This document shows, piece after piece, positions 4,715 through 53,803 of a stretch of 64,000 bases of DNA. Origin of the DNA: a virus (lineage: Duplodnaviria; Heunggongvirae; Uroviricota; Caudoviricetes); the IMG/VR virus record IMGVR_UViG_3300028800_000057; one strand, written 5' to 3'. Position 1 is the first letter of the stretch; every line of letters starts with the position of its first letter. Below the pieces are notes generated by a model. That model was not told where the DNA came from. It worked only from the letters and a program-made list of their open reading frames with translations, and did not search any database. The translations under genes and the position numbers were made by a program.

Positions 4715-4722
4715 TATTCCTT

Positions 4723-5169: not shown

Positions 5170-5175
5170 TTCTCT

Positions 5176-5739: not shown

Positions 5740-5814
5740 GTCCGTCGCGCACCTTGCCGGCTTGCTATCGGCCTGTCAATCTAAAACCGTAGTGAGAACC
5801 CTACCCGTTTCTTG

Positions 5815-5842: not shown

Positions 5843-5848
5843 GAGAGT

Positions 5849-6238: not shown

Positions 6239-6240
6239 GC

Positions 6241-6795: not shown

Positions 6796-6878
6796 TACAC
6801 CAAAGGAAAAACTGTTGAGAATTAGGAACTTGAAACGTAATAGCCTATGAGAGCCTACGGGCCTAGTGAGAGCACAAT

Positions 6879-7109
6879 ATGAATGACCGACCTGATACCT
6901 TTGAAGGAGAGCCTGCTTATGTCCAAGATTTCTGGGACAGAGCCAAAAATGGGGGCGCGGAAGTTGACGAAACCGTATACAAGTTCACTATCACCAAGGA
7001 AGATTCAGAGAAGTACCCTGAGTTGAAACCGGGTATGCGCTTGCTACTCGCCAAGTCACCCGATGGGTTCGTATTTCATGACCTGCTACCCCCCAGATTG
7101 ACTAACTGA
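6879..7109 (+). CDS. Hypothetical small protein
   Basis: 76-aa ORF; placed only by its position in an otherwise ORF-free gap. Confidence 0.35.
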   Translation: MNDRPDTFEGEPAYVQDFWDRAKNGGAEVDETVYKFTITKEDSEKYPELKPGMRLLLAKSPDGFVFHDLLPPRLTN

Positions 7110-7129
7110 CCTAACTACTACGATTTTAG

Positions 7130-7157
7130 TTGAGACCAGAGAGCGCCGTGCGTAATA
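7130..7157 (+). promoter_or_regulatory. Conserved phage promoter (TTGAGA-N16-GTAATA) upstream of ATG 7176
   Basis: Family consensus including the CGTGC element upstream of the -10; leader about 12 nt. Confidence 0.5.
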
Positions 7158-7175
7158 CCCTCTACGAGAACTGTA

Positions 7176-7445
7176 ATGAACTCTGATACCATTCTACCTG
7201 AAGGAATAAGCACGCTGAGGCCACAAGCGATCGACCACAACGACTTCATTTGCGGTTACCGCCTGGCAAGAGTAGCATCGATTGACGTTATCAACTCTAT
7301 GCAAGGACACTCGACGTACTCTTTACGAATGGGCTACATTGCTTACATAGCCTTATCCACTAACAACTTCCCAGACATCGACTGTATTAAAGCAGCTGAG
7401 TTCGCTGAAGGTTTAGGTCTGGGGGAAAGCCTGAAACATGACTGA
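7176..7445 (+). CDS. Hypothetical protein
   Basis: 89-aa ORF downstream of a family promoter. Confidence 0.45.
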   Translation: MNSDTILPEGISTLRPQAIDHNDFICGYRLARVASIDVINSMQGHSTYSLRMGYIAYIALSTNNFPDIDCIKAAEFAEGLGLGESLKHD

Positions 7446-7947
7446 GCAGTATCCAAAACATCAGATTGAGGATGAGATCGAAGTTCGTGTTAGTGACCAA
7501 CACCACCGCGGAACCATCACTGGCATCGCATATTCTTGCCCCCTTTACATGTACATCGTTCAACTCAACGACCCAGTAGAAGGTGAGTTTGGACCCCAGA
7601 CTGGCTTGTACGTTCCCGAAGGGATCTTGATAGCCAAGCCCGATGTTGAGTCTCTTTCCATGTGGACCACCGTTGGTTCATACACCTTCGTGGATGAGAC
7701 TGAAGACGGTGAAGTTTTTGCGCTTGACGTCCAAATTGGTATTGCTGAGGAGGGTGATGCTATCTACGTCGTTTCGAATGATACTGCAGATGGCAAGCAA
7801 CCCCTCGAGTTTACCTCCTTCGGTAGCCATCAGGAAGCTCAGGAGTATGCTCTCGAGTACATCAAAGAGAACCACGCGGCGGCCCCAGGTGAGAATGCTG
7901 AGCAATACTTGGCCAGAGTCAGCAGCGAGTGTGATTCGGAGAACTAA
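7438..7947 (+). CDS. Hypothetical acidic protein
   Basis: 169-aa ORF whose ATG overlaps the upstream stop. Confidence 0.45.
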   Translation: MTEQYPKHQIEDEIEVRVSDQHHRGTITGIAYSCPLYMYIVQLNDPVEGEFGPQTGLYVPEGILIAKPDVESLSMWTTVGSYTFVDETEDGEVFALDVQIGIAEEGDAIYVVSNDTADGKQPLEFTSFGSHQEAQEYALEYIKENHAAAPGENAEQYLARVSSECDSEN

Positions 7948-8339
7948 CCACAGTCAGTGATGTCGAAGACTTGTTCCCCGGCTACGGGTGGGCTCATGAA
8001 CTCTTTTCTGAGTTCTTCGACTCGATGATCTGGGAATTCTAGCCCGCGGGGGCGGAGTTCCCAGATTGGTCGCCTCTTCAATGAGATGAAGGTCTTCTTC
8101 GAGTTGATGTACCCAGCTAGCGCCAGTTCTTCCTGGGTGAGGGGTCTAGCTCTGTACCCAAGCTCCTTGGAGCTGAACATGAGGATGTCAGCGTAACTCC
8201 CAGGGTAGATGTCAAGGACAATCGCGTAGTGCGAGCCCTCAGTGTCGTCATGGGTTACTACGCTTCCCGGTGCGACTGTGGAGAAGTCCAAGTCCAACCG
8301 TGCGTCAGGCATAGGCGGTCTACGGAACTTGGTCATCAA
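7944..8339 (-). CDS. Hypothetical protein
   Basis: 131-aa ORF. Confidence 0.4.
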   Translation of the reverse strand: MMTKFRRPPMPDARLDLDFSTVAPGSVVTHDDTEGSHYAIVLDIYPGSYADILMFSSKELGYRARPLTQEELALAGYINSKKTFISLKRRPIWELRPRGLEFPDHRVEELRKEFMSPPVAGEQVFDITDCG

Positions 8340-8433
8340 ATCGTAATATCATAGACACCTGGCCGGATCAATCGCTTCAATTTTGTTACCAATTAGCGTA
8401 GGTTTTAGGGTACCCTACGTTCCAATGTTCAAC

Positions 8434-9282
8434 CTAGGTGGCTAAATTCATAAGTTGATGCAGGTGCACTTTGAGTTTGCGCTTCGCACGGGACTCCAAC
8501 TGACGAACTCTCTCTCTAGTAACCCCAAGGTCCTTACCTATCTCTTCAAGGGTCTTAGAGTCCTCGTGAAATCTCATGAGGCGGGTTTCAGCAATGTAGC
8601 GCTCCCTCTTGTCAAGGTAGGTCAGGCTCTTCTTGACTATGCTCTTGATTCCAGTGACCTGCCTATTGCTAATAACCAAGTCCTCGGGGCTGTCTCCGTT
8701 GAACTCGAGGGTGTCTCCTAGCGTCGTTTGAGCATCATCGTAGGCTGGTAGATCAGTGGATACATCTGACCACTCCATGACTCTCTTCAACTTACTTAGT
8801 TGAGCTGATGTGATCTTGAGCTTATCCATCAAGTAAGAGTCAGCCTGCTCAGATCTACCATACAGGCTCTCTGCCTTGTTACGCTCCCGCTTGTACTGGT
8901 AGAAGTTATCGCTCCTAACCTTTCCTTGAGTGTGAGTTTCCAAGTGGTAAGCAAGGATCGCATTGTACATAAACGCTTTGATCCAGTAAGATGCATAGGT
9001 TACAAACCTATTGCCCATCTCAGGCTTGAACTTGTCGAAGGCATGCATCAGACCAAGACTACCCTCAGAGACCAGATCATCGGTAGCTATGGGGTAGCGG
9101 CGATACATGATGGCTAGAGCCACCACATGACGCATTGATGCCTCGATGATACGCACCTTGGCTTTAGCATCACCCGCAGTACGCCACTGTTCGAATAGAC
9201 GCAACTCCTCATCAGGATCAAGAGGTGGGGTTCTCTTTGTAACCCTGAAAAGTTTTTCTAACCTGTCATTAACTTGCAACAC
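8434..9282 (-). CDS. Sigma-70 family sigma factor (RpoD/RpoS-like, regions 2-4)
   Basis: Region 2 DLVSEGSLGLMHAFDKFKPEMGNRFVTYASYWIKAFM; region 4 HTH TLEEIGKDLGVTRERVRQLESRAKRKLK. Confidence 0.8.
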   Translation of the reverse strand: MLQVNDRLEKLFRVTKRTPPLDPDEELRLFEQWRTAGDAKAKVRIIEASMRHVVALAIMYRRYPIATDDLVSEGSLGLMHAFDKFKPEMGNRFVTYASYWIKAFMYNAILAYHLETHTQGKVRSDNFYQYKRERNKAESLYGRSEQADSYLMDKLKITSAQLSKLKRVMEWSDVSTDLPAYDDAQTTLGDTLEFNGDSPEDLVISNRQVTGIKSIVKKSLTYLDKRERYIAETRLMRFHEDSKTLEEIGKDLGVTRERVRQLESRAKRKLKVHLHQLMNLAT

Positions 9283-9612
9283 GACACTTTACCAGGGTAC
9301 AAGTACACTAAGCATATTAGGTTGTGCTTCCAACCGCGGGTCGATTATCATCCCGCATTGAATCGATGCTCAGAAGCCCCGAGGCCCATAGAACCCCCTG
9401 AATAAAGCAGATCCATCGCATGGCCTTGTCACGATCCCCCAATCGAACTTGATGTTCAACTTCACTGCACATCCATAGGCAATGGTCAAAAGCACAAGGG
9501 TCCCCTGTCTTTAAGTTCAGTGAAGTGTCACACTTTTGGGCTCGTGCACCTGTAGCCTGAAGTACTTCTTCGTACTTACTCGATATCTTTAGAATTTGCG
9601 TTGGGTCCATAA

Positions 9613-9987
9613 TTGGTGCTATCTTTGGCGCGCGTGTCAGAAGGTCCTAAATCATTCCTAGGTAACGAGTTCAAGGAAGACGACCTTTCGGGGAAGTTTC
9701 TTCCTTGGGCAAATGGGGTTCCCGTCTACGTAACCTCGAGTTCAAGCCCAGGTCAGTACTATCTACCTTGTTTCACTGATATTGATGCCCTCAGGATCTT
9801 TATGCTGAAGGCGCAGGTCTTTGAGTATGAGGTGAAGAGGATCGGGGTCGGAAGTGAGTTTCTGAAGAGCTTTGAGGGGAGTAATATCAAGGTTGTACTG
9901 GATCCGAATCAACTGCCTGATGGAAAGGTTGAGATCGGAGAGTTTCAGCTACCGGCGTCAGATAAGTGGAAGCTCTCTCAGTGCTGA
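9613..9987 (+). CDS. Hypothetical protein
   Basis: 124-aa ORF. Confidence 0.4.
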   Translation: MVLSLARVSEGPKSFLGNEFKEDDLSGKFLPWANGVPVYVTSSSSPGQYYLPCFTDIDALRIFMLKAQVFEYEVKRIGVGSEFLKSFEGSNIKVVLDPNQLPDGKVEIGEFQLPASDKWKLSQC

Positions 9988-10378
9988 CCACACCATCAGG
10001 TAAGTTTCGATCACAAGCGAGCCAGACTGTATGCGGTTGCTCAAGTCCATTGTAGTCGACGAGGAACTGAATCGCCCCCCAAACCTCCTGGTACTTCCCT
10101 GGAAGCACATCGAGTCGAATCACATCTTTAGCGTGACGCTGAAGAAGTTCCATTGACCTCACGTTTACCCACACTTTATCAACATCTCTGGGGATAGCCG
10201 CGAGCATCTCGTTGACAATCGGCGGCCTGAGGTTCTGTATGATCAATTCTAGCTCTTTAACCCGACGCCATAGGATCACTTCTTCTCTGGTGGCCTCGTG
10301 ACTCTCACACTGTGAGTGGTGGTAGGCTTTACTGATGAAGGATTCGTATTCATCCAGCTTGAAGTCGAGTAGGGCCAT
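9887..10378 (-). CDS. Hypothetical protein
   Basis: 163-aa ORF; its 3' end overlaps the previous gene convergently. Confidence 0.4.
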   Translation of the reverse strand: MALLDFKLDEYESFISKAYHHSQCESHEATREEVILWRRVKELELIIQNLRPPIVNEMLAAIPRDVDKVWVNVRSMELLQRHAKDVIRLDVLPGKYQEVWGAIQFLVDYNGLEQPHTVWLACDRNLPDGVVSTERASTYLTPVAETLRSQPFHQAVDSDPVQP

Positions 10379-10419
10379 CTAAGTTGGTTACACCGCGGAT
10401 GGCCCTACTCGACACTTGG

Positions 10420-10647
10420 TCACCGGCCCTTCTTCTTGGCAACCTTGACTGTCTCAACTGTCGTAGTCTTGGGTCGCTTCTTGGCTTCTGTCACCGGGAT
10501 GAACTCGCCACTCCCAGAGTCTCGACCAATCTTTTTCACCTTTACTGTACTAACTTTGGCTTTAGGCATAGAGCCGTCCTTTCGTCCGATTAGTACACCG
10601 GATACCCAAACGGATTTTAGCCTACAGTGGCACTTTGCCAAACTCAA
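10420..10647 (-). CDS. Small lysine-rich basic protein (possible DNA-binding)
   Basis: 75 aa, KAKVSTVKVKK...KRPKTTTVETVKVAKKKGR. Confidence 0.35.
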   Translation of the reverse strand: MSLAKCHCRLKSVWVSGVLIGRKDGSMPKAKVSTVKVKKIGRDSGSGEFIPVTEAKKRPKTTTVETVKVAKKKGR

Positions 10648-10666
10648 AGTTATTTTGACAATTAAG

Positions 10667-10694
10667 TTGAGTTATCGAGTCGTCGTGCGTAATA
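10667..10694 (+). promoter_or_regulatory. Conserved phage promoter (TTGAGT-N16-GTAATA) upstream of ATG 10704; a consensus TTGACA lies at 10655-10660
   Basis: Family consensus with the CGTGC element; predicted TSS 3 nt before the ATG. Confidence 0.5.
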
Positions 10695-10703
10695 ACGTGT
10701 TGC

Positions 10704-11843
10704 ATGACGACCCCTATTACCCGTTGGATAGCTGGAACTGGACGAGTCACACCTGTCATAATCCTTGAGGCAGGTACCGGGGGGCAGAACTTGGCTTTTG
10801 TACCTCCTGACCCAGTAGTAGTCCGATCCATAACAGACTATTTTGAATTTGTGGCCAGCGAGAGCGCTCTATTTACAGATAAGGGTTTGGCTATCGAGGA
10901 ATCCCGACGTCTACAGGACGAGGAGATCTTGAAGGCAAAGAAGCTCCTTGCGCAAATTGAGCGCAGGGAAGTACTGGAGGCCCGAGCTCTGGAGATTAGT
11001 GCCCTGGAGGTTAGTGCCCTGGAGATTAGTGAGGATATTGATACAAGTCCTCCCCAACCTGTGGTAAAGATGTCACAAGAGAGTAGCGATACTCTCAAGC
11101 CGCCAGTGGAGGTTGTTGTTGTGACCAAGAAGAGTACCCCAGAAGAAACCGAGATACCCGTAACTTTGCTGGCACGAATCCTATATGTCATAGGAAGGGA
11201 AACCCTAGGTTTTGACGAGATCTGCCAGCGACTTCAGGCAAGAACCTGGATGCCCAAGCGCCGGAGCTCGGTGAGCAATGTCCTCAGTGGGTACAAGAAC
11301 ATGTTCCACTGCCCGGTTAAGAGTATCTACTCTTTGCGCAACAAGCCCAAGGTATCTCCGGTCGAGAGAGACGAGGTTACTCTTCAGGGAGAAAGCGAAG
11401 CTGAATCGACGTCCGAAGGTTACCAGGACCAGGACCAGGACCAGGACCATGGTACTAATCCAATGATTTTGGAAGCTGAGTATGAAGTAGTGGATGAGGG
11501 TTTGGGTAAGTCTGACGAGCCTGAGGAGCCTGAGGAGCAAGAAACCCCCGTGGAAACCCACACGGTTGACGACGAGCCCCCGTCAGAGTACGACACCTGG
11601 ATGGGCATGCCTATGACCAGCCTGAGCCCAACACGAGCCCATTACCATGACGAGGATCTAGTCCTGGCCGAGAAGAGTAATGGTGACGGTGAGTGGACAG
11701 CTGAGATCCATGTCGAAGGGCTCGCTCTGTGGTTTGAGGGTAGCGCGGGAGATCGTCTGAGAGCGCGCGAGTTGGCGCAAAACAAGCTCAACAAGCAGAC
11801 TGAATCCATTGAAAGCAGACTCGAGAGACTTCAGGGTCTGTAA
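10704..11843 (+). CDS. Acidic low-complexity repeat protein
   Basis: 379 aa; in-frame tandem nucleotide repeats encode LEISALEVSALEIS (10981-11030), QDQDQDQD (11426-11450) and EPEEPEEQE (11518-11540). Confidence 0.55.
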   Translation: MTTPITRWIAGTGRVTPVIILEAGTGGQNLAFVPPDPVVVRSITDYFEFVASESALFTDKGLAIEESRRLQDEEILKAKKLLAQIERREVLEARALEISALEVSALEISEDIDTSPPQPVVKMSQESSDTLKPPVEVVVVTKKSTPEETEIPVTLLARILYVIGRETLGFDEICQRLQARTWMPKRRSSVSNVLSGYKNMFHCPVKSIYSLRNKPKVSPVERDEVTLQGESEAESTSEGYQDQDQDQDHGTNPMILEAEYEVVDEGLGKSDEPEEPEEQETPVETHTVDDEPPSEYDTWMGMPMTSLSPTRAHYHDEDLVLAEKSNGDGEWTAEIHVEGLALWFEGSAGDRLRARELAQNKLNKQTESIESRLERLQGL

Positions 11844-12063
11844 CATGCCGACAGTGCACATACCAAATAGTTCTGAGAGTGTATTTGTTATCGGAACTCA
11901 GGATGATGCCGACAAGACGCAAGCAATACTCGACGCCCGTCATGCCTTCATACAGAGGTACTGTAAAGAGCAAGGGTGGCCTGAGGACGAAGATAAGCTA
12001 TCAATCCAGCAGATTCTACAGATCAGACAACAAGACGGCTGGAAGAACCCAACCCTAGCGTAG
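11809..12063 (+). CDS. Hypothetical small protein
   Basis: 84-aa ORF. Confidence 0.35.
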   Translation: MKADSRDFRVCNMPTVHIPNSSESVFVIGTQDDADKTQAILDARHAFIQRYCKEQGWPEDEDKLSIQQILQIRQQDGWKNPTLA

Positions 12064-12071
12064 AGTTTTAG

Positions 12072-12100
12072 TTGAGATCCGCATACCCTTGCGCGTAATA
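12072..12100 (+). promoter_or_regulatory. Conserved phage promoter (TTGAGA-N17-GTAATA); predicted TSS at ATG 12107 (leaderless)
   Basis: -10 end plus 7 nt is 12107, the A of the ATG. Confidence 0.55.
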
Positions 12101-12106
12101 GCGGGT

Positions 12107-12376
12107 ATGTTCATGCTCCTTGTTGACCAAAACCCATTGAGATCACGAGTCGAACTGGCAAGCTGCCTCCTAGTCGAGGCGTCTACCAGTGGTTCCAATC
12201 AGGACCTGTACTTGGAAGAGGCTTGGTGGCATATTGAATGGGCCCTCAAGCTCATAAAAGCAGAAGCTCGTCCAGACCCTCTTGCCCTTGAGGCTCTGGA
12301 CGAGCTTCTGCCTGTCTACCAGTACCTGTGTTGGGTTATGCAGGATGAGATTCAGGAGTCATCTGCGCAGACCTGA
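12107..12376 (+). CDS. Hypothetical protein
   Basis: The track ORF 12089-12376 uses an upstream TTG; the ATG at 12107 sits at the leaderless start. Confidence 0.45.
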   Translation: MFMLLVDQNPLRSRVELASCLLVEASTSGSNQDLYLEEAWWHIEWALKLIKAEARPDPLALEALDELLPVYQYLCWVMQDEIQESSAQT

Positions 12377-12696
12377 GCTTATCTACCTTGTCCCAGGAGA
12401 CCGTGTAGGCTGGATGGCGCTTTTCAGCTCCCTCCGTCTTCCAATGGACTCGAAGTCCTTTATGAGTAGCCAATAACGTGACTTTGGTTCCGTTTCGGTA
12501 AGTGTGCGTGTGTTTAGTTGCCTTTGCCATAAGGCATTGTACACCGTGGCTCGTAGTGTTCGAGATAGTTAGGCTTGAGGGGTATCTAAAAAGCGTAGAG
12601 AGGCAACCTCAAAAGCTCTACCTACGCTTTGAATTACAGCAAGATCGTTCACCACGGGGTAAGCAAGATATAATCTTCTTGTAACCTAGGTGCTTT

Positions 12697-13059
12697 ATGT
12701 CAGACCCAGAACTTCGGAGGGCGGCGACCCTATCCCCCTTGGCTAAGCGTGTTCTTTTGACGTTTGATCACATAGACGCCAAGACGGGCAAGGGGAACTA
12801 TGTTACCCTTTACGCTTTGAGGGAAGCGTTGCCTGGGGTACCCCGTGGGGATTTTGACCAGGCGGTCAATGAGCTTAGGATAGCTCGTAAGGTAAGTTTG
12901 GACTCAGCTGATGGGCGGCATGTGAGGATATCCCCTGCGGAGCAAGCAGCTGCCATAGTGGAGGATGGGGACAGGCTTGTGTACATGGCGCGAAGATCGT
13001 CGATCACCGCCTCAGACATAGTTCAGAGGGTGGCGGCTAGGTTTATTCGAAGTACCTAG
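12697..13059 (+). CDS. Hypothetical protein
   Basis: 120-aa ORF; a TATAAT-like element at 12668-12673 lies upstream. Confidence 0.45.
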   Translation: MSDPELRRAATLSPLAKRVLLTFDHIDAKTGKGNYVTLYALREALPGVPRGDFDQAVNELRIARKVSLDSADGRHVRISPAEQAAAIVEDGDRLVYMARRSSITASDIVQRVAARFIRST

Positions 13060-13248
13060 AGATCCAACTCATCGAGCTATTATTCACTCTATAAGGTGGA
13101 GTTTAATTCCTAGTAGAGTGATGTATTTGTCAATGATTCCACCTTGTTGGGTAGAGTCGTTAACCTATTTTACCAGTAGGTTTTCGTCAATAGTATGTGT
13201 TTGGCCCCTAGGCTGAAGTTAGAGGTTTTTTGAAAAAGTCAACCTTTT

Positions 13249-14034
13249 ATGAGTTTTGGGGGTTGTAGTCTCTCATACTTTGATCCACTATTGCTTGGAA
13301 CTGCCGCTAAAGGCTCAACAAGGAAAACAGTTATGGCAATCATGAATCAGAAGTTCAATAAAACAGAGTTCATCCGAGCTCGCCCTAACATGAAACCCAT
13401 TGATATCGTGGGGGAGGCAGCAAAACTAGGTCAGAATATTCGAATCAACTTCATCTGGACTATTCGAAGCAATGACCGTAAGGCGGCCGGCATCAGCAAG
13501 AAGGTTGCCAAGAAGGTTGCCAAGAAGAACGCGGCCCCCGTCGTGCAACCTGTCGAAGCTGAAGCTGAATCAACCTTCAACAAGTCGGACTTTATCCGCA
13601 AGCGCCCCAACAAGTCTGCGGCTGACATCTCTATCGAGGCTGAAGCACTCGGGCAGGACATTCCACCCCAGATGGTTTGGAGCATTCGGAGCGCCGACAA
13701 GAAGAAGGCTTCGGAGGAACCTGTTCCAGCTAAGAGGGTTGCCAAGGCTAAGAAGGTTGCCAAGAAGGTCTCCAAGAGGGTTGCTGTCAAACCAGTGGTT
13801 GCCAAAGCTGCCCAGGCTAAGAAGGTTGCCAAGAAGGTTGCCAAGAAGGTTGCCAAGAAGGTATCACCACCGGTATTTATGCAACCTACCAAGATTCCAA
13901 TGGTCACAGGGTCGTCAGCTTTTGCTCAGGCCCGCAATGGGAATAGAGTTACTCTGGTCGTCTTCGATCCACGTGATCCGAAAGCAGTCAAAGCTGCTAC
14001 TGCCGCAATGAGGGAAGCAGTCGCTCACGCATAA
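13249..14034 (+). CDS. Histone H1-like lysine/alanine-repeat protein with an internal domain duplication
   Basis: Several runs of KKVAKKVAKK encoded by 12-bp tandem repeats (AAGAAGGTTGCC)n. Two copies of an about 45-aa module: FIRARPNMKPIDIVGEAAKLGQNI...IWTIRSNDRK and FIRKRPNKSAADISIEAEALGQDI...VWSIRSADKK. Confidence 0.55.
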   Translation: MSFGGCSLSYFDPLLLGTAAKGSTRKTVMAIMNQKFNKTEFIRARPNMKPIDIVGEAAKLGQNIRINFIWTIRSNDRKAAGISKKVAKKVAKKNAAPVVQPVEAEAESTFNKSDFIRKRPNKSAADISIEAEALGQDIPPQMVWSIRSADKKKASEEPVPAKRVAKAKKVAKKVSKRVAVKPVVAKAAQAKKVAKKVAKKVAKKVSPPVFMQPTKIPMVTGSSAFAQARNGNRVTLVVFDPRDPKAVKAATAAMREAVAHA

Positions 14035-14152
14035 TCCAACCAGTGGTAACGTTCCAGCCTCCGAGAATGTCTTCGGAGGCTGATGCGTTTAATGGGTAAG
14101 AAACCGGCCAGTCAAATACTAACTACTGGTTGAATTAGTAGCAAATTAGTAG

Positions 14153-14181
14153 TTGAGAACTGGTGCAATCTGCGCGTAATA
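14153..14181 (+). promoter_or_regulatory. Conserved phage promoter (TTGAGA-N17-GTAATA); leaderless start at ATG 14188
   Basis: -10 end plus 7 nt is 14188. Confidence 0.55.
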
Positions 14182-14187
14182 GTAGGC

Positions 14188-14457
14188 ATGGATACCCAAG
14201 CACCCAGCAGATCTCAAGTACTCCCTACAATCACTATCGGTGGGACCTCACGGAATACATTGCTTGACGACACCTCAGATGCCCTCAATGCGCTTCGTGA
14301 CGCACTCCGTGCTCTATCTGTTACGACCCCTAACGCACGCGACTATCCGAACCCTGGGGACATAGGACTAGCGATGACTCAGTACCTCGACCGCAAGCGA
14401 CGGATCGAATCGGTGATCACTGAGCTCGAAGTTCTTGCTGAGCACATTGTTGAGTGA
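14188..14457 (+). CDS. Hypothetical protein
   Basis: 89-aa ORF at the leaderless start. Confidence 0.5.
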   Translation: MDTQAPSRSQVLPTITIGGTSRNTLLDDTSDALNALRDALRALSVTTPNARDYPNPGDIGLAMTQYLDRKRRIESVITELEVLAEHIVE

Positions 14458-14561
14458 GCCATGGGAGATGCGCTAGCTAAGGTTTTTGGTGTATTCATCC
14501 TAGTTATATGGTTAGTGTATTGGGTAGTTGATAATCTGATCCAGTTACTTGGAGGTTAAGT

Positions 14562-14882
14562 ATGCCGACTCGAGATATGGACCAAGATCACCATCGTATC
14601 AAAGGACATCCAACTTCAGAGGGTCAAGAGCAGGCCCCGTTGATGTTGCCCTACACACCTTTGCCAACCGAGATCATCCCCGCTGACAATAAATGCAGTG
14701 TCCATCTATTTGTAGGTGGGATCAATGCAATGACTGCCGAATTCATCCAAGAGGTTCAGAAAACTGATGGATCAATCAAACTAACTGAGAGTGAGTGGGT
14801 TGAGCGATACTCTCAGTTCGTTACCTTGACTCAAGACAAATGGGTGAAGCGGTTTGCTAACTTTTTAGCAAGGTCTAGGTAG
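14562..14882 (+). CDS. Hypothetical protein
   Basis: 106-aa ORF with the SD-like GGAGGTTAAGT just upstream. Confidence 0.45.
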   Translation: MPTRDMDQDHHRIKGHPTSEGQEQAPLMLPYTPLPTEIIPADNKCSVHLFVGGINAMTAEFIQEVQKTDGSIKLTESEWVERYSQFVTLTQDKWVKRFANFLARSR

Positions 14883-14912
14883 TCGGTAATCCTTTAGTCT
14901 GGACTCAATAGT

Positions 14913-15353
14913 ATGACTCACGACCCGCTCATCCAAAAAATAGCTGCAAGGTTCGCCGCTGAAGGTGGTGGGTCTGAAGAGTTCATCAAGGCTGTTGAGT
15001 CTCACTTGAATCTTCAGGGTCGTCAGATCCGATTCGATAATGAATCGAGGCTCGCCGGTAATCGTTACGATACTGTGTTCGTCAACTTCATCAACATGCC
15101 CACTGGGCATGGAAGAGGTGGTGGGGCCGAAGCTGAGAACAACAGGATGTCTTTTTTCATCGAGGGTTTCGGAAAAGAGACTCCCCACAGCCCGCCTCCG
15201 ACCGGCAAAGTCAAGATTGAGATGCGAGTCTCATCCCTTCCCCGAGAGTACAAGCTTCGAGGGAAGACGGGGACTCCCGCGCAGGTGGCAAAGTATCTGG
15301 CTGACTTCCTGAACAATGTGGTCAAGAACGTCGAGCCTAAGCTGCAGCCCTGA
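14913..15353 (+). CDS. Hypothetical protein
   Basis: 146-aa ORF. Confidence 0.45.
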   Translation: MTHDPLIQKIAARFAAEGGGSEEFIKAVESHLNLQGRQIRFDNESRLAGNRYDTVFVNFINMPTGHGRGGGAEAENNRMSFFIEGFGKETPHSPPPTGKVKIEMRVSSLPREYKLRGKTGTPAQVAKYLADFLNNVVKNVEPKLQP

Positions 15354-37321: not shown

Positions 37322-37565
37322 GATCTAAAGTTCTTTCTAGTAGTTCTTTGGTCTTCGTATCAATGCCTTGTTTTGCTAGTAGCCAAGCCCATACATAGGG
37401 ACCATAGATGGCTTCTAGCACGTTCACAGCCAAGAGGTGCTCAAAGTCAGGTACTGTTCGACCCGCCTCGAGCTCATTGCACCCGTACACTGCATATTCA
37501 AGTACTACCCCCCAGTTAATGTCCTTGTTCATGGTAGGCATCTTGGGTTTTTCTGATTCGCTCAT
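37287..37565 (-). CDS. Hypothetical protein
   Basis: 92-aa ORF. Confidence 0.35.
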   Translation of the reverse strand: MSESEKPKMPTMNKDINWGVVLEYAVYGCNELEAGRTVPDFEHLLAVNVLEAIYGPYVWAWLLAKQGIDTKTKELLERTLDHVPPSTHLPHP

Positions 37566-37571: not shown

Positions 37572-37964
37572 TCATTTCTTGAACTTAGCCGTTGGGTACT
37601 TCTCACGAACATATTTCTTGGCTTCTCGCCTGTTGTCTGCGCGAAACGTCAGCTCGACTTTCCCATCCTCTGAAGAGCACCAGTACAGAGGGCGACCAGG
37701 GCCGAAGTAGGTTACAAATCGATCATACCCCAACCGGTCAAGATGTACTGCGTGCATCTTCATGAGACTGCCGTCATACACCCCAAGTAAATTTGGCCTG
37801 TCTGTAAACCCACCCTTGAGTTCAGGTTCTGTATCCCCATCGATCTCTGACTGCAGCCTCTCCTGCAGGCCGTGAAGTATCCGATAGGCGTCGTTCGTAG
37901 TAGTTAACGGCAACAGCTCCCGCAGGGCCAGGTTCACTTGACCTAGTATCTCTGAGACTCTCAT
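37572..37964 (-). CDS. Hypothetical protein
   Basis: 130-aa ORF with stop/start overlap to the upstream gene. Confidence 0.4.
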   Translation of the reverse strand: MRVSEILGQVNLALRELLPLTTTNDAYRILHGLQERLQSEIDGDTEPELKGGFTDRPNLLGVYDGSLMKMHAVHLDRLGYDRFVTYFGPGRPLYWCSSEDGKVELTFRADNRREAKKYVREKYPTAKFKK

Positions 37965-38464
37965 GGGATCAAGATCTTTTCGATCTCGGCCATGACGGCC
38001 AAGTGGCTTTTGGTCAACTTGCGCTTGGCGCGCAAGTGCTTGAGGATAATCACTGTCTCCTCCAATTGCTTGGGAGAAGGATTGTCCCGAAGGTTTGCTA
38101 ACCTATCGCAAAGCTTTAGGAATAGGGCATAACTAGACATACCGGCCATGTGGCCTTTCAGGTACTCCAGCTTGCCCATCTTCTTGAGGGCTACGGGGTC
38201 TGAGGTCAGCTCGAAGACGAGGGAGGCAATCGACATCCCAAAGAGCCGAAGGATCTGGGCATAGGTGGCCTTCGTGTCCTCGACAGTGTCGTGAAGGATG
38301 GCCGCGCAAATCAGAGTCTCTAGGGCCTTTGACCGCTTGTAGCTCGCGGCCAAGTACGACACGAGTATTGGGTGTGTGACGTAATCAGCCCCAGATACCT
38401 TGCGTTTCTGCCCACGATGCTTTGAGGTAGCGTACTTGAGGGCTTTGAGGATTAGTTCGCTCAT
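37961..38464 (-). CDS. HD-domain (p)ppGpp hydrolase-like small alarmone hydrolase (RelA/SpoT HD family)
   Basis: ATSKHRGQKRKVSGADYVTHPILVSYLAA...ICAAILHDTVEDT matches the Rel/SpoT hydrolase HD signature (HxGQxRK...PYxxHPL...AALLHDxxEDT). Confidence 0.65.
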   Translation of the reverse strand: MSELILKALKYATSKHRGQKRKVSGADYVTHPILVSYLAASYKRSKALETLICAAILHDTVEDTKATYAQILRLFGMSIASLVFELTSDPVALKKMGKLEYLKGHMAGMSSYALFLKLCDRLANLRDNPSPKQLEETVIILKHLRAKRKLTKSHLAVMAEIEKILIP

Positions 38465-38470
38465 GCATGG

Positions 38471-38498
38471 TATTACGCACGAGGAACTACAATCTCAA
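38471..38498 (-). promoter_or_regulatory. Conserved phage promoter (TTGAGA-N16-GTAATA); leaderless for ATG 38464
   Basis: The reverse complement reads TTGAGAttgtagttcctcgtgcGTAATAccatgcATG; -10 end plus 7 nt is 38464. Confidence 0.55.
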
Positions 38499-38904
38499 CA
38501 TCTTTTGAAGAAGACCAGTCATCCCACTCGTCCTCGGTCAGTATAAAAGACCCAATCGGCAACGGATCTACAATACCATCTGAGCGGTAAGTCTTGATAC
38601 TCTCCCCGTCGAGTCGAGTGATTGTCCCGTCCTGCTGACGAATGAAAATTAGGCACTCCGCGTGAGATGGGTCGCTCTTCCATCCAGAATTCTTCTCTGC
38701 CCATACGACTAAGTCGTTGTTATTCATGGGCTTACCACACGTTTTGCAGCAGTAGGGGTGGATCTGGACCCGCGCGATCCTCGGGTACTCTACCTGGTCT
38801 TCCATCCTTTGACCGGGCTTCTTCTTCCTTTGGTAGTGGCCATAGAGGAGAGTTATGGCCAAGCCCACCAAAAATGAGATGATGATAGCAACTGTACTAC
38901 ACAT
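38473..38904 (-). CDS. Membrane-anchored Cys-containing protein
   Basis: N-terminal TM helix; CCKTCGKP. Confidence 0.4.
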   Translation of the reverse strand: MCSTVAIIISFLVGLAITLLYGHYQRKKKPGQRMEDQVEYPRIARVQIHPYCCKTCGKPMNNNDLVVWAEKNSGWKSDPSHAECLIFIRQQDGTITRLDGESIKTYRSDGIVDPLPIGSFILTEDEWDDWSSSKDVEIVVPRA

Positions 38905-38909
38905 GCCTT

Positions 38910-39758
38910 CTACTCCAAGATCAGCGACAGGGGCTCGGTTGAGATTCTGAAGTCGACTCTCTGCTCGTATTTGACCGGATGTTTGATGAACGGGCCGTCG
39001 AGGTACAAGATGCCGTCGTTGACTTTGGAGATAAGCTTGAAGCTCATGCCCTCAAAGAATCGAGTCACTACCTCTCCAGGACCCGCGTAGGGTTCTCGGA
39101 TGATAGCTTGGAGGTAGTTGCACTCAGGTGAGTAGCAGGTACCTCCTGCTGACTTCATGGCTCCCGTAGAGCCAGCTCCGGTACCAACCCAAAGCCCCGA
39201 GGACCCGTAGCGGTCCTTGCCCAGAATGAATTTGGTCATAGCGGCAGGGCACACATGGGAGAATAGGGCCTCATTCAGTACCCGGTTCGAAACCACCTTG
39301 CCATCAACTAGTACCTGGAGGCGGGTGACTCTCCTGGCCATGCCTTTGAAAGTCTTAGACTTTAGGATACCAGCAACATCGGAGGCGAGGGCCGCGCAGA
39401 GGTACCCTGTTGAAGTCTTGGGGTCTGAGTTCACACCAAGTATAGGGACGCCTGCAGGCACCTTGTGGGAGGCAGAGAGCAGTGTCCCATCCCCACCGAC
39501 CGTGATGACCAGCTTCGTGGTTACTGGTACTTTGAAGTCTACTCCAAGCCCATCAATTATCACTGGCTTTTGGCCTACTGCATCTAAAGCCTCGAGGATG
39601 ATGTCTATCGACTTCGAGTGCCTCAGGTGGACACTACGAGCGCGACGAATCGCTGAAGGGGCCACACCATCAAATCCACCACGAGTATGGGATAATTGTT
39701 CCCAGGTACTACGCTTGACAACTAGAATGATTCGTTCTCTCATGGGTCTTCCTTGCAT
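38910..39758 (-). CDS. nadK: NAD(+) kinase
   Basis: 282 aa with the GGDGT motif (VITVGGDGTLLSASH) and the downstream ILGVNSDP (the NxG loop) typical of ATP-NAD kinases. Confidence 0.65.
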   Translation of the reverse strand: MQGRPMRERIILVVKRSTWEQLSHTRGGFDGVAPSAIRRARSVHLRHSKSIDIILEALDAVGQKPVIIDGLGVDFKVPVTTKLVITVGGDGTLLSASHKVPAGVPILGVNSDPKTSTGYLCAALASDVAGILKSKTFKGMARRVTRLQVLVDGKVVSNRVLNEALFSHVCPAAMTKFILGKDRYGSSGLWVGTGAGSTGAMKSAGGTCYSPECNYLQAIIREPYAGPGEVVTRFFEGMSFKLISKVNDGILYLDGPFIKHPVKYEQRVDFRISTEPLSLILE

Positions 39759-40031
39759 TTACCCTAGTTACAGCTTCTATCACTTCTATCGGAGCAACTC
39801 CAGTAGATATTCGCAGGCTTTCCCCGGATATCTCAGCGATGCAGTCGTACTCCCAAGTGAAAAAGGCAAGCTGCTAGTAGACCCTCTCGGACGTACCAGC
39901 CCCATTCTTCTGGAAGCTCCGGCAAGTCGTACTCGTTGGTCATGCTTCAGCTACACCTAAACCCCACACGTTTACAGACATGCCTCTCTTTGGGTTGTTG
40001 ACGTACTGAATACTTAGGTGTACTTGATGGC

Positions 40032-40901: not shown

Positions 40902-41197
40902 GGCACTACTTTCGGTGGCCCGTCAATGCAGATCTGTAGAACGCTGTTCTGACCAGCATCACACTTATCCTGCCAGTACTGGGATAAGATCAATCGGTTG
41001 TGCTCTTTGGCTAGATGACGCTCTTGAGTGAGCCTTACCATATCCCGGTTGAACTCTTCTCTCTCCTTGTCCGCCTTGGACACTGTGGGCTTTACTTGTA
41101 GCTCCTCGACATTGGAATCGTGGATTGGTTTCAAGTAGTACATTGATACCAGTCCGGCTACAAAACCAAGAATGAACCCAAACACTAAATGTCTCAC
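40898..41197 (-). CDS. Small membrane protein, paralog of 40584-40901
   Basis: Tandem duplicate; N-terminal TM helix. Confidence 0.4.
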   Translation of the reverse strand: MRHLVFGFILGFVAGLVSMYYLKPIHDSNVEELQVKPTVSKADKEREEFNRDMVRLTQERHLAKEHNRLILSQYWQDKCDAGQNSVLQICIDGPPKVVP

Positions 41198-41715
41198 AAC
41201 TCACCTCTCTCGTGCGCGAGCATGCATCGCACCCGGTCCAGCTCCTCTTGGGTATGCGGGGTTCCGCCGGCATTGATGTTGAGGTACAGTTGGAGGATTT
41301 CAGCTCTTGTTTCAAGGCTGCAGACCCTCCATTTGAAGCCCATGTGGAGTCTCATTCGGTCCGTGAACTCTGACCGGTAATAACCATGAGCCTTGAACTC
41401 ATCCCGGAGCCATGCTCGAACCGCTTCGAGTCGTTGCTTGCCGTCGACGATCTCGTAAGTACCAAGCTCTATGCAGCTTCCCCAACCCACCGCGTTGAAG
41501 GTGAGGTTCTTGCCAACCTCACCACCTTGCATGACATACTCGACATAGTCCTGCTGTTGCTGCTTGGACCACACATGAGCGCGCTGAAAGTCAGGGTCGA
41601 GGTTCAGACCGTCTTCTTCGATAGCGGACCTTATGAAGCCCTCCAGGAAGTGCCAGTCAACATCAACCTCGTAATGAGCTCGCGGGAGTAACGGTATGTC
41701 TTGGAAACGGGCCAT
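41194..41715 (-). CDS. DUF262 (ParB/Srx-fold, GmrSD N-terminal-like) domain protein
   Basis: DPDFQRAHVWSKQQQQDYVEYVMQGG...YEIVDGKQRLEAV matches the DUF262 signature (QR..VW......I.S...G.P...............DGQQRL). Confidence 0.5.
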   Translation of the reverse strand: MARFQDIPLLPRAHYEVDVDWHFLEGFIRSAIEEDGLNLDPDFQRAHVWSKQQQQDYVEYVMQGGEVGKNLTFNAVGWGSCIELGTYEIVDGKQRLEAVRAWLRDEFKAHGYYRSEFTDRMRLHMGFKWRVCSLETRAEILQLYLNINAGGTPHTQEELDRVRCMLAHERGEL

Positions 41716-41942: not shown

Positions 41943-42620
41943 TCAGGCATTGGTGGTTTCCTTCGGTAGTGCTTCAACGATCTTTACAACTCCTTGCATG
42001 CGATCTTCATTGAGCCCTTGGGAAGCCTCAACGAGTTTGACGATTGCCCGCACGCGCGCTTCGGTGAGGCCTCGAATGGTGATGTTGAAGTAGCAGTCAG
42101 TTTTGGACATCGGGAAGATCAAGTCAGCATACGCTGGTAGGTCATCTCGAAGGCGACCCAGGGCGGCCATGACTTCTTGACGTTGCTGCTCATGGAGCGC
42201 CCGGCGCTCAAGCATCCGTTTGAACCAGCTGTTCTGTTTTAGGGTCTCCTCGTAGACTTCCTCTGCAAAGTTCTCGAGCCCTTCTTCGATGGTAGTACCC
42301 CGGTAGAGGATCTCACCATCAGGTTCCATTCGGATAGTCTCAAAGGACATCACAAGAACGCCCTTGTCGACACCCTCGGTGACGGTGAGTGCCCGATACA
42401 CCTCAGGGTCTTCGGTGATTAGGAAAGTGAACCAATACCGATTGTTGGCCCTCTCAGCGTTGATTCCTACTCCTTCGAGTTTTGCTTGGAGTGCAGACAG
42501 GATGTCTAGGGCTCGGTTTTCGACTTCGGGGCTGCTGTAAAATGGCATTTGGATCTTCTTCCTCAGTTGGAACAATGGGTGCTGGTGGATAATCTCGGTC
42601 GAGACCTCGGGCGATCTCAC
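41943..42620 (-). CDS. Hypothetical protein
   Basis: 225-aa ORF. Confidence 0.4.
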   Translation of the reverse strand: MRSPEVSTEIIHQHPLFQLRKKIQMPFYSSPEVENRALDILSALQAKLEGVGINAERANNRYWFTFLITEDPEVYRALTVTEGVDKGVLVMSFETIRMEPDGEILYRGTTIEEGLENFAEEVYEETLKQNSWFKRMLERRALHEQQRQEVMAALGRLRDDLPAYADLIFPMSKTDCYFNITIRGLTEARVRAIVKLVEASQGLNEDRMQGVVKIVEALPKETTNA

Positions 42621-49122: not shown

Positions 49123-49737
49123 TTGAGTGAATGTTGGTGTAAATACACCAACATGCGCTCACCAACTAGAAGAATACCAAAAACTCCACTACCACTGGAC
49201 GAACGTCTTGCTCTCATCGACTTGGACGGTACTCTGGCTGACTACGACACCAAGATGCGCAGGGAGCTGGCCAAGCTTGTTGCACCGGGGGAGACTGGTG
49301 TGCAAGGGGAGTACCTGGAGAACCGGCGTAAGCTGGTCAGGAGTCAGCCTGGGTTCTACTTGAACCTGAAGCCCCTCAAGCGAGGGTTCGAAGTACTGAA
49401 CGTGGTCCGGAGGATAGGCTTCGACCTCGTGGTGCTCACGAAGGCATCAGTCAAAGTTCCCAACTCATGGTCCGAAAAGGTGTCCTGGGCACAGAAGCAT
49501 CTGTCTGATGCTTCAATTACGATCTCGCAGACCAAGGAGATCGTCTATGGTCGGGTCCTCGTTGACGATTGGCCTGAGTACTACGAGGCCTGGCTTCAGC
49601 GCAGACCAAGAGGGCTTGTGATTGCCGTGGCCCACCCTCACAACGACAAGCCCACCAACGACCCGCGCATCATCCGCTATGACGGAACCAATCTAGCGCA
49701 GGTCGAGGAAGCCTTACTCAAAGCGTACAACCGGTGA
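49123..49737 (+). CDS. HAD-superfamily 5'(3')-deoxyribonucleotidase-like phosphatase
   Basis: HAD motif I in IDLDGTLADYD, which resembles the NT5C-type DMDGVLADF. Confidence 0.55.
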   Translation: MSECWCKYTNMRSPTRRIPKTPLPLDERLALIDLDGTLADYDTKMRRELAKLVAPGETGVQGEYLENRRKLVRSQPGFYLNLKPLKRGFEVLNVVRRIGFDLVVLTKASVKVPNSWSEKVSWAQKHLSDASITISQTKEIVYGRVLVDDWPEYYEAWLQRRPRGLVIAVAHPHNDKPTNDPRIIRYDGTNLAQVEEALLKAYNR

Positions 49738-52861: not shown

Positions 52862-53803
52862 ATGGAAAAGTACCCTTCAATCGTCGAACTAGCCAAGTGT
52901 CCTGAGATATTCCACGTTAAGCAAGTGATAGCCTGCGAAAAAGTGCATGGAGGCAACTTTCGTTTGTTTTTCCCTCTCGGTATGAAGAGTATTGAGGAGA
53001 TAGGGTACGGATCGCGCGACGTCGAGTATGGGGTTGGGGATCAGAAGTTCCCTCTTGGGTCGATGCTCAACAGGTTCAAGGCTCTACCTGAAGTGTTGAA
53101 CCGTATGTTCGAGGTTCTCATGGTCTCGTACGGGTTCTCAGAAGTCACTGTCTTTGGGGAAGCTCACGGACCAGGTATCAAAGCCAAAGGGGTCAGGTAC
53201 AGCAATGGCCAGGAGCCTCTATTCCGAGCCTTCGATATCATGGTGGCTCAGAACTTCGTCACCTACGATCTGTTCTGTGAGATATGTGACAAGATTGGAC
53301 TTCCAAGAGTACCTGAAGTCTGGCGCGGGGAGCCAACCCAAGATAACTTCGATTCCCTACTCGAAAGGCCTAGTACTGTCGGTAAGCTTAATGGGTTTGG
53401 CGATGACAACATTGCTGAAGGGGTGGTCCTTCGTTCGAATCCTCTCTTCAGGAACGTGTTTGGGGAGTGGCTCATCTGCAAGCACAAGTGCGCAAAGTTT
53501 GCCGAGGTGGCTACAGCCGCTGTCCAGAAGATCCCACGGGGGCCGACGGCAGCCGACGACTTTGCAGCCAGGTATGTCACTGAAGGTAGGGTTACCAACG
53601 CCATCGGGAGACTCAATGACTCTGGTGTGGAGCTTACCAACAGCATGAAGGACATGCCTACAGTCCTGGGAGCGGTCTGCGCCGACCTAGCCAAGGACTG
53701 TACTGTGGAGATGACGGAACTTGGACTCTCTGAAGTATCCGTCAAGGGGAATGTATCTCGGGTATTAGGCCCAATGTACAGAGAAATGCTAACCCGAGAG
53801 TGA
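52862..53803 (+). CDS. RNA ligase, Rnl2 family
   Basis: Nucleotidyltransferase motif I in CEKVHGGNFRLF (compare T4 Rnl2 REKIHGTNFSL); 313 aa, similar to T4 Rnl2 at about 334 aa. Confidence 0.65.
   Translation: MEKYPSIVELAKCPEIFHVKQVIACEKVHGGNFRLFFPLGMKSIEEIGYGSRDVEYGVGDQKFPLGSMLNRFKALPEVLNRMFEVLMVSYGFSEVTVFGEAHGPGIKAKGVRYSNGQEPLFRAFDIMVAQNFVTYDLFCEICDKIGLPRVPEVWRGEPTQDNFDSLLERPSTVGKLNGFGDDNIAEGVVLRSNPLFRNVFGEWLICKHKCAKFAEVATAAVQKIPRGPTAADDFAARYVTEGRVTNAIGRLNDSGVELTNSMKDMPTVLGAVCADLAKDCTVEMTELGLSEVSVKGNVSRVLGPMYREMLTRE

Follow-up and report, generated by a model that had tools for sequence, protein, structure and literature searches.

The 64,000-nucleotide stretch of IMG/VR virus record IMGVR_UViG_3300028800_000057 (the window) codes for an NAD (nicotinamide adenine dinucleotide) kinase of the type represented by human NADK2. 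The enzyme family is known, but this phage representative is missing from the catalogues searched and is the novel item of its locus. One gene away is a stand-alone RelA/SpoT-type HD hydrolase (small alarmone hydrolase, SAH), whose gene is of an already known kind and ordinary for large phages. The kinase belongs to the backbone of a group of related huge phages and the hydrolase to a variable cassette beside it, and the two probably serve independent auxiliary functions that are neighbors by chance. A preliminary description of the window had recognized a Rel/SpoT-type HD hydrolase and an NAD kinase here and had read them as a linked pair with which the phage dampens the stringent response and boosts NADP(H) supply. 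Both domain assignments are right, with scores far beyond chance and both genes on the minus strand, and the HD...EDT signature and GGDGT motif it named lie at residues 57 to 64 (LHDTVEDT) and 83 to 87 of the respective proteins; the genes are not two genes apart, a single 143-amino-acid (aa) gene (38473-38904) lying between them. The NADK2 type of the kinase, and the finding that the kinase rather than the hydrolase is the novel item, go beyond that description.

A family profile of the 277-aa kinase ranks human NADK2 first (4e-20, versus 6e-15 for the Archaeoglobus fulgidus enzyme). The protein matches Pfam NAD_kinase (PF01513) at 5e-7, a match that covers the GGDG region only; the NCBIfam NadK models reach at most 44 bits against cutoffs of 211 to 493, all far below, and the kinase has no PHROG family. 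Its AlphaFold (AF2) model has a pLDDT of 93.2 and a two-domain NAD kinase (NADK) fold, which Foldseek superimposes on NADK2 (7r4l) at 2.4e-20, with a TM-score of 0.89 and a root mean square deviation of 2.5 Å, compared with TM-scores of 0.60 to 0.71 for canonical bacterial, archaeal, yeast, and human cytosolic NADKs. All of the 50 Foldseek PDB matches listed for the model are NAD/NADH kinases but one, an unnamed structural-genomics "putative kinase" (2an1). The kinase shares with canonical NadK/PpnK proteins (Mycobacterium tuberculosis 1u0r, A. fulgidus 1suw, and Listeria monocytogenes 2i1w) the two-domain fold, the GGDG and NE motifs, and the Gly-rich GST motif, but differs from them in overall superposition, in the replacement of Asp189 and Tyr202, and in an extra N-terminal strand and helix.

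The active-site motifs are strongly conserved. In a 25-homologue alignment (down to 38% identity) 46 columns are invariant, including K10, G83-G84-D85-G86-T87, N105, S111, G113, C116, L156-N157-E158, H163, P166-A167-A168, S182-G183, W185, A190-G191, T193-G194-A195, S198-A199-G200-G201, R216-E217, and D249-G250-P251, and the presence of catalytic residues among them is consistent with purifying selection on the family. The residues at the D85 and K10 positions have known roles in NADK2, where the D161N mutant has trace activity only and where K76 contacts the substrate diphosphate, its replacement by Ala cutting activity ~10-fold (PMC9245612). The NE/D short motif, whose absence the preliminary description had held would speak against an active kinase, is present and invariant in the 25 homologues.

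Around the NAD site the kinase departs from both canonical NADKs and NADK2. Canonical NADKs keep Asp189, Thr200, and Tyr202, which in the active human NADK2 are replaced by Ser, Lys, and Trp (PMC3535332); the phage kinase keeps only the Thr of this set (S182, T193, A195), and because NADK2 is itself active with a substituted set, the Ser and Ala replacements are no argument against kinase activity. In NADK2, H191 stacks on the adenine and W319 on the nicotinamide (PMC9245612). The phage residue at the first position is Y114, which varies across the family (Y/F/H/R/K/C), and at the second is the invariant A195, with Thr193 where NADK2 has K317; the invariant W185 might substitute for the nicotinamide-stacking Trp. 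Animal NADK2 also carries EMKA, a tetramer-disrupting insert of 22 to 47 aa between alpha8 and alpha9 (PMC9245612), whereas the phage kinase has ~14 residues between SAGG (198-201) and R216-E217, approximately as in canonical NADKs. With no EMKA insert and 277 rather than 442 aa, it is thus NADK2-like in its core and not an orthologue of animal NADK2. It shares with NADK2 (C5orf33; PDB 7r4j-m, 7n29) the Lys of the "VVxK" strand, "GVNxDPxxSxGxxC", GGDG, NE, and a Ser for Asp189, but has no mitochondrial presequence and is only ~20% identical. Together, sequence and model point to a compact NAD kinase of NADK2-like build whose active site is apparently intact.

Relatives of the kinase are found in huge phages and in one group of bacteria. 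A homology search returned 1,713 relatives, the closest of them on 98- to 460-kb contigs, together with Polyangiaceae "NAD(+)/NADH kinases" at ~41% identity; at E ≤ 1e-30, 810 family members are present among 1.84 billion representatives. IMG/VR (2.9 M contigs) holds 10 kinase loci, all on contigs of 98 to 459 kb. Among 50,697 phage records there are five weak partial matches (≤31% identity, ≤63% coverage) that resemble canonical host-type NADKs, three being so annotated, and among the BFVD viral structures there is no phage protein with the kinase fold and one giant-virus fragment at a TM-score of 0.47. The 185,579 species genomes contain at least 449 matches, the best 80 of which are essentially all from Polyangia (Sorangium, Chondromyces, Labilithrix, and Polyangiaceae metagenome-assembled genomes) at 36 to 43% identity, the remainder of these 80 being unclassified metagenome-assembled genomes ("delta proteobacterium," Proteobacteria, and "uncultured bacterium"). 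The chromosomal Polyangia enzymes align over their full length and share the motifs and the length class of the phage kinase, but are cellular and high in GC, with no SAH nearby. In a rough, unbootstrapped neighbor-joining tree with a partial NADK2 fragment as root, 13 of the 15 distinct viral sequences form one clade that is sister to Polyangia plus a third viral lineage. Literature phrase searches for a phage or viral NAD kinase found no paper, and "NAD kinase" and "NADK" are absent from the jumbo-phage NAD+ synthesis paper and from those papers on the phage NAD+ reconstitution pathways (NARPs) that the search listed.

The cellular relatives in Polyangia are also what would favor regarding one or both genes of the pair as decaying or misassembled host fragments without function, which is extremely unlikely. 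The exact kinase protein is present on 19 contigs and the exact hydrolase protein on 12, from several samples and with lengths of 52 to 443 kb (the longest is 443,068 bp); catalytic residues are invariant across the 21 to 25 homologues, the models are of high confidence, most viral kinases form a clade of their own in the rough tree, and a GC content of ~0.53 fits the phage window (0.51) and not Polyangia (median, 0.69). A host assignment from the Polyangia relatives of the kinase was considered and is not settled, given the same difference in GC between the window and the cellular genomes and the sister position of the viral kinases.

The second enzyme, of 167 aa, is recognized by Pfam HD_4 (2.5e-12), by the N-terminal hydrolase region of TIGR00691 (RelA/SpoT; 8e-21), and by phrog_990 (7.5e-27). 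Its best PDB sequence matches are Drosophila Mesh1 (2e-16) and human Mesh1 (8e-15), followed by bacterial SAHs and the hydrolase domains of long Rel proteins. It is a single-domain protein: the profile matches reach only the hydrolase part of the long RelA/SpoT homologue models, with no synthetase, TGS, or ACT domain. The AlphaFold model (pLDDT 95.8) has the all-helical SAH fold, with Foldseek TM-scores of 0.77 to 0.79 to Mesh1, 0.78 to 0.80 to the Pseudomonas aeruginosa SAH, and 0.80 to 0.81 to Corynebacterium glutamicum RelH. In a 21-homologue alignment (down to 28% identity), 13 columns are invariant, including all catalytic positions, which is consistent with purifying selection on this family as well. 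H16, H31, H58, D59, E62, D63, D120, and N124 are invariant and R21 is at least 90% conserved, and they align to H19, H35, H61, D62, E65, D66, D122, N126, and R24 of human Mesh1 (hMESH1), respectively; R24 and K25 of hMESH1 have base-stacking roles (bioRxiv 10.1101/325266). The metal-binding His and Asp residues, whose loss would have undone the preliminary assignment, are thus all in place. The full metal, catalytic, and base-stacking set and the near-equal superposition on Mesh1, the P. aeruginosa SAH, and RelH identify a generic stand-alone SAH.

Such hydrolases are common in phages. SAH relatives are present in 271 deposited phage genomes, mostly of jumbo phages, and on at least 479 IMG/VR viral contigs; the best phage matches are to Vibrio phiKT1024-like phages (50% identity) and Burkholderia phage BcepSauron (47%), and uncultured phages of 484 to 636 kb have matches at 36 to 41%. 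The SAHs of Salmonella phages PVP-SE1 (PbcSpo) and SSU5 (PaSpo) neutralize every toxic alarmone synthetase (toxSAS) tested (PMC7229694), and an "HD-alarmone PDEase" has already been named among jumbo-phage counterdefense candidates (PMC7824862). The window SAH resembles these in its single domain of ~170 aa, its full HD/ED set, and its large-phage genome, but is located in a small variable cassette beside an NAD kinase and is known here from sequence and model. By its sequence it would hydrolyze the 3'-pyrophosphate of (p)ppGpp and (p)ppApp and might also clear pyrophosphates from tRNA 3' ends, and an infected cell would in this way be spared the growth arrest that alarmones or toxSAS impose. 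Reversal of tRNA CCA pyrophosphorylation by SAHs has been described (bioRxiv 10.1101/2021.04.30.441581). The earlier proposal that the hydrolase dampens the stringent response is plausible, but the literature on phage SAHs points at least as strongly to neutralization of toxSAS and of tRNA pyrophosphorylation (PMC7229694; bioRxiv 10.1101/2021.04.30.441581).

Mesh1 is also an NADPH phosphatase, with contacts to the nicotinamide riboside (NR) made by W138, H141, R142, and E145 on the alpha8-alpha9 loop and alpha9 (bioRxiv 10.1101/325266), and for a Xanthomonas SAH (XccSAH) that lacks this NR motif, NADPH phosphatase activity in vitro and an effect on NADH levels in vivo have been reported (PMC9765508). 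Because both proteins act on NADPH and an NAD kinase is encoded nearby, the Mesh1-specific contacts were examined in the phage SAH. The two proteins are 39% identical over residues 5 to 127 and share the metal and catalytic residues, the base-stacking Arg/Lys, and the fold, but the phage SAH has E136, I139, I140, and H143 at the positions of the four NR contacts, and no sequence alignment is possible for its C-terminal helices. Trp is absent from the family consensus in the NR region, and the BLAST alignment to hMESH1 ends at D127, in the NLRD motif. (Residues 7 to 128 of the hMESH1 query sequence match the 3nr1 HMMER alignment, and the numbering of this sequence reproduces the residue numbers of the paper.) A Mesh1-type NADPH phosphatase assignment was rejected for want of the NR motif, although the phage SAH may, by analogy with XccSAH, have a weak side activity of this kind.

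These comparisons bear on whether the two enzymes could form a coupled NAD(P) module, in which the kinase makes NADP+ and the SAH serves chiefly to remove the 2'-phosphate of NADP(H), such that the phage sets the NAD(H)/NADP(H) balance. The NADPH activities of Mesh1 (bioRxiv 10.1101/325266) and of a bacterial SAH without the NR motif (PMC9765508), the rank of Mesh1 as best PDB sequence match, the position of the genes one apart in a tight codirectional string, and an independent kinase lineage with an SAH 4.7 kb away are all compatible with it. We nevertheless think it unlikely, as the NR contacts are missing, the C-terminal region is unalignable, and in structure the SAH is no nearer to Mesh1 than to the alarmone hydrolases of P. 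aeruginosa and C. glutamicum. The hydrolase cassette is an indel beside the kinase, which close relatives retain without any SAH; no SAH is near the kinase in the phage lineages at 43 to 47% identity or at 80 cellular loci; and a kinase and a phosphatase working on one cofactor would constitute a futile ATP-burning cycle unless regulated.

Comparison of the locus with its relatives (denoted by L-numbers, which are labels of relatives' loci, L099 to L178 being the cellular kinase loci) shows how the adjacency arises. A single gene separates the kinase and SAH genes in the window, in L009 (kinase 65% and HD protein 83% identical), and in L183 (465 kb, HD protein 82%), and in a 435-kb JGI contig they are separated by a different gene on the opposite strand. 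Gene-by-gene synteny reveals a four-gene cassette directly downstream of the kinase, coding for the 143-aa protein, the HD hydrolase, and proteins of 130 and 92 aa. The hydrolase cassette is present in these four genomes and has no counterpart at this site in L001 (442 kb, kinase 71%) and L179 (237 kb, kinase 63%), which keep the backbone of the window without any of the four cassette genes. The common backbone consists of a GmrSD_N gene, the homologue of 41943-42620, the kinase, and the homologue of 34991-35389, with L179 also having the gene for a protein with a major vault protein (MVP) shoulder domain. The kinase is kept while the hydrolase block varies, which marks it as a backbone gene and the hydrolase as part of a variable cassette, and the two are adjacent because that cassette is located directly downstream of the kinase in one subclade. 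Two L001 genes were considered as counterparts of cassette genes: a 169-aa downstream gene was rejected by BLAST as an HD orthologue (E = 0.39), and a 132-aa gene was rejected as a homologue of the 143-aa ORFan.

Beyond this subclade the pairing is rare. There is no SAH within 6 to 10 kb of the kinase in L180 (55% identity) or in the loci at 43 to 47% (L003 to L005, L010 to L015, L181, and L182) and none within 6 kb at any of 80 cellular loci, and just 1 of 80 viral SAH loci has an NADK2-type kinase within 10 kb. The preliminary description was thus right to call the linked pair uncommon, but the functional pairing that it implied does not fit a backbone kinase beside an indel cassette, nor the HD orthologues at 66% and 55% identity (L184 and L185), which lie elsewhere and without a kinase. 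That the genes were selected as a pair for coordinated host takeover, switching off the stringent response and raising NADPH together, is accordingly improbable: both activities would favor productive infection, the genes are probably cotranscribed, and at least four related genomes have preserved the pair, but adjacency was found in a single subclade and not across independent lineages, sister genomes that keep the kinase have lost the pairing, and SAHs are common in phages without any kinase.

Some observations weigh against independent functions and chance adjacency, or against the activity assigned to the kinase. In L016 and L018, which represent the most divergent viral kinase lineage (32% identity), a RelA/SpoT-type hydrolase (TIGR00691, 5e-15) is located 4.7 kb downstream of the kinase; with two such lineages of about eight, the chance is ~0.01 to 0.04 if each genome has one randomly placed SAH, and the proximity could reflect a functional link. 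This estimate presumes naive random placement and is inflated by the clustering of accessory genes, so the L016/L018 proximity is taken as a hint only. L017 has a weaker hydrolase match ~9.7 kb from its kinase. In the kinase itself, two NAD-site residues of canonical NADKs are replaced (D189 to S and Y202 to A) and the nicotinamide-stacking Trp of NADK2 is lacking, and an altered substrate is therefore possible. Lastly, no NADPH-consuming or other NAD-pathway gene was recognized among 100 window open reading frames (ORFs). Independent functions remain the probable reading of the pair.

The L016/L018 loci have a further feature of note, in that a YpsA/SLOG-family protein (L016 11139-11615, +; Pfam 8.4e-16) directly follows the NAD kinase, in L018 likewise, with a transglycosylase and the HD_4 hydrolase further downstream; SLOG proteins are nucleotide binding, and a possible NAD-related context is suggested.

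As judged from its sequence, the kinase would phosphorylate the 2'-OH of NAD+ (or NADH) with ATP or polyphosphate, and would thereby enlarge the NADP(H) pool that feeds NADPH-dependent phage nucleotide synthesis. At L181 (kinase 47%; 1255-15186) the kinase is 4 to 6 kb from a thymidylate synthase (ThyA) and an NADPH-dependent dihydrofolate reductase, with a deoxynucleoside monophosphate (dNMP) kinase (DNMK) nearby, and at L182 (kinase 47%; 1-12003) it is near a DNMK, with a deoxyribosyltransferase also present; these nucleotide-metabolism neighbors support a role in nucleotide synthesis. The boosted NADP(H) supply of the preliminary description is accordingly reasonable, its basis being gene context in these other lineages only. 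Other phage enzymes likewise act on the NAD pool, namely those of NARP1, NARP2, and NARP3 and the jumbo-phage NAD+ synthesis genes, but these synthesize NAD+, whereas the window kinase is predicted to phosphorylate it.

The L181 and L182 kinase neighborhoods also include Acb1-like (2',5'-RNA-ligase-family) and Acb5 genes, of the kind that act against the cyclic oligonucleotide-based antiphage signaling system (CBASS), and this keeps a counterdefense reading alive. In this reading the kinase would turn NAD+ into NADP+, out of reach of NAD+-cleaving effectors (such as SIR2 and TIR), or alter the substrate for NAD-derived immune signals, and the SAH would independently counter abortive infection by alarmones or toxSAS, the two making up an antidefense islet. 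NAD+ depletion is a widespread defense, and phages rebuild NAD (bioRxiv 10.1101/2024.02.11.579819; PMC13464706); phage SAHs have been proposed as counterdefense genes (PMC7229694; PMC7824862); and the YpsA/SLOG protein of L016 is in keeping with such a role. But the kinase uses up NAD+ and does not restore it, NARP-type genes (Adps, Namat, Nampt, and NMNAT) were not detected in the window, the NARP papers listed by the search never mention an NAD kinase, there is no PADLOC or antidefense family match, and Polyangia encode this kinase type on the chromosome, making this quite unlikely. A variant that joins both enzymes, in which the kinase parks host NAD+ as NADP(H) beyond NAD+-cleaving effectors and a promiscuous SAH releases the pool as an NADP(H) 2'-phosphatase while destroying alarmones, could explain why an SAH lies within ~5 kb of an NADK2-type kinase in two deeply divergent huge-phage lineages, but we regard it as very unlikely.

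The organization of the locus is that of an operon-like string, as five same-strand genes have short or overlapping junctions: 5 nucleotides (nt) between the kinase and 143-aa genes, 8 nt between the 143-aa and HD genes, an ATGA overlap between the HD and 130-aa genes, and 6 nt between the 130-aa and 92-aa genes. The five are probably cotranscribed. Three of them (the 277-aa NAD kinase, the 143-aa ORFan, and the 167-aa SAH) occupy 37961-39758. The kinase ORF (38910-39758, minus strand) would code for 282 aa from an alternative ATG at 39758, but a second ATG at 39743, preceded at 5 nt by a Shine-Dalgarno-like AAGGAAG, agrees with the database gene call, so it is the likely start, giving 277 aa. 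Counts from a consensus promoter and terminator scan of 36.7 to 40.2 kb equal the shuffle background, and thus no promoter is assigned and the transcription unit is not defined. The 143-aa ORFan appears to be membrane anchored from its sequence features and is 51% identical in L009; the 130-aa ORFan is 73% identical in L009, where the gene order differs; both are absent from L001 and L179. The 143-, 130-, 92-, and 82-aa proteins have no match in Pfam, NCBIfam, PHROGs, or PADLOC.

Features of the NAD kinase and SAH locus (positions are those of the window)
Feature	Coordinates	Strand	Basis or remarks
Intergenic region between kinase and divergent 131-aa gene	39744..40031	.	Presumed promoter region of the five-gene string, from gene layout
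NAD kinase gene, NADK2-type, 277 aa	38910..39743	-	Pfam PF01513, profile, AF2 model, Foldseek
N-terminal strand 'VVKRS' with invariant K10	39708..39722	-	Profile alignment 'kvivvaKrsaye' vs 'RVVVVAKTTRYE'; K10 = NADK2 K76
GGDGT motif, residues 83-87	39483..39497	-	Invariant; D85 = NADK2 catalytic D161 position
'GVNSDPKTSTGYLC' motif common to NADK2 ('GVNTDPERSEGHLC'; 'GVNxDPxxSxGxxC')	39396..39437	-	N105, S111, G113, C116 invariant
NE short motif 'LNEAL', residues 156-160 (N157-E158)	39264..39278	-	Invariant in family
Gly-rich motif II, variant form 'SSGLWVGTGAGSTGAMKSAGG'	39141..39203	-	S182, T193, A195 at M. tuberculosis D189, T200, Y202
143-aa ORFan between the enzymes, first cassette gene	38473..38904	-	N-terminal hydrophobic helix, then HPYC/CKTC/HAEC (zinc-ribbon-like)
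SAH, stand-alone RelA/SpoT-type HD hydrolase, 167 aa	37961..38464	-	HD_4, TIGR00691, phrog_990, AF2, Foldseek
'KHRGQKRK...THP'	38369..38422	-	H16; R21/K22 base stacking (hMESH1 R24/K25); H31 metal ligand (hMESH1 H35)
'HDTVEDT' (in LHDTVEDT, residues 57-64)	38273..38293	-	H58-D59 metal (Mn2+) ligands, E62-D63 catalytic pair
'CDRLANLRD'	38084..38110	-	D120 metal ligand (hMESH1 D122), N124 (hMESH1 N126); invariant
Region equivalent to Mesh1 NR contacts	38036..38083	-	Reads 'NPSPKQLEETVIILKH'; no W/H/R/E pattern
130-aa ORFan, cassette gene	37572..37964	-	Start overlaps HD stop (ATGA)
92-aa ORFan, last cassette gene	37287..37565	-	6 nt after 130-aa gene, GGAG in spacer

The wider setting is that of a large and sparsely sampled virus. 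The window has ~117 ORFs, roughly 90% of which are without family (ORFans), and a tRNA scan of its 64 kb found none. A DNA search with 6 kb around the locus against the 50,697 deposited phage records gave a sole match of 71 bp, to a 485-kb uncultured phage, and the relatives include an IMG/VR viral contig. With the length of the longest contig carrying the kinase, we conclude from the sequence that the source is a huge phage (~443 kb) from a poorly sampled group. The family matches in the window are two sigma-70-type factors, an RNA ligase, a dNMP phosphatase (NT5C), a nucleoside deoxyribosyltransferase, GmrSD_N/ParB-like and MVP-shoulder proteins, and a weak terminase-like match. One of the two sigma-70-family factors found within the 64 kb is at 8434-9282 (minus strand; phrog_351, 4e-39), and the presence of two suggests phage-directed reprogramming of the host RNA polymerase. 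The NT5C-type dNMP phosphatase (phrog_318, 8.9e-54) and the RNA ligase (phrog_548, 1.4e-29) are at 49123-49737 and 52862-53803, respectively, both on the plus strand, and the nucleoside 2-deoxyribosyltransferase ORF (Pfam 8.5e-31) lies outside 28.9 to 49.7 kb and is none of ten candidate ORFs that were compared. Unusually for a phage, a 329-aa protein (170-1159, plus strand) carries at its C terminus a response-regulator receiver domain (PF00072, 6.5e-10).

Two genes flanking the locus recur in the related phages. An 882-aa protein (30759-33407, minus strand) contains the MVP shoulder domain (PF11978, 1.2e-10), and its gene is a backbone gene of related huge phages (L179, L183, L006, and the 435-kb JGI contig). 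The GmrSD_N/ParB-like gene (41194-41715, minus strand; 173 aa; Pfam 2.4e-11, PADLOC NsnA 8e-10, and phrog_1583) is the most conserved of the region, with 84 to 90% identity in L001, L009, and L179. Close relatives also carry type I-C CRISPR-Cas genes, which begin ~3.8 to 4.9 kb from the kinase gene in L001 (1-2206) and in the 435-kb JGI contig and include a Cas_Csd1 of 623 to 625 aa; a 229-aa neighbor of Cas_Csd1 in the JGI contig has a weak Cas5d match. The 100 window ORFs examined gave no Cas family match, which leaves the phage of the window without Cas genes at this position.

For annotation, the locus is a caution that a striking gene pair can be a cassette insertion beside a backbone gene and not a functional module. 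The compact, EMKA-less 277-aa relative of human NADK2 is a subject for structure-function work. Of at least 449 cellular matches the best 80 come essentially from Polyangia, a pattern that may be relevant to where mitochondrial NADK2 originated; far more speculatively, the compact NADK2-type kinases common to Polyangia and huge phages might point to a prokaryotic source of that enzyme. A central part of the conflict between phages and bacteria is fought over NAD metabolism, with NAD+-depleting defenses on one side and phage NARP pathways on the other, and the phage catalogues and literature searched contain no phage enzyme at the NAD-to-NADP step. With a kinase conserved in phages of ~100 to 470 kb, the NADP(H) pool would join the host parameters under direct phage control.

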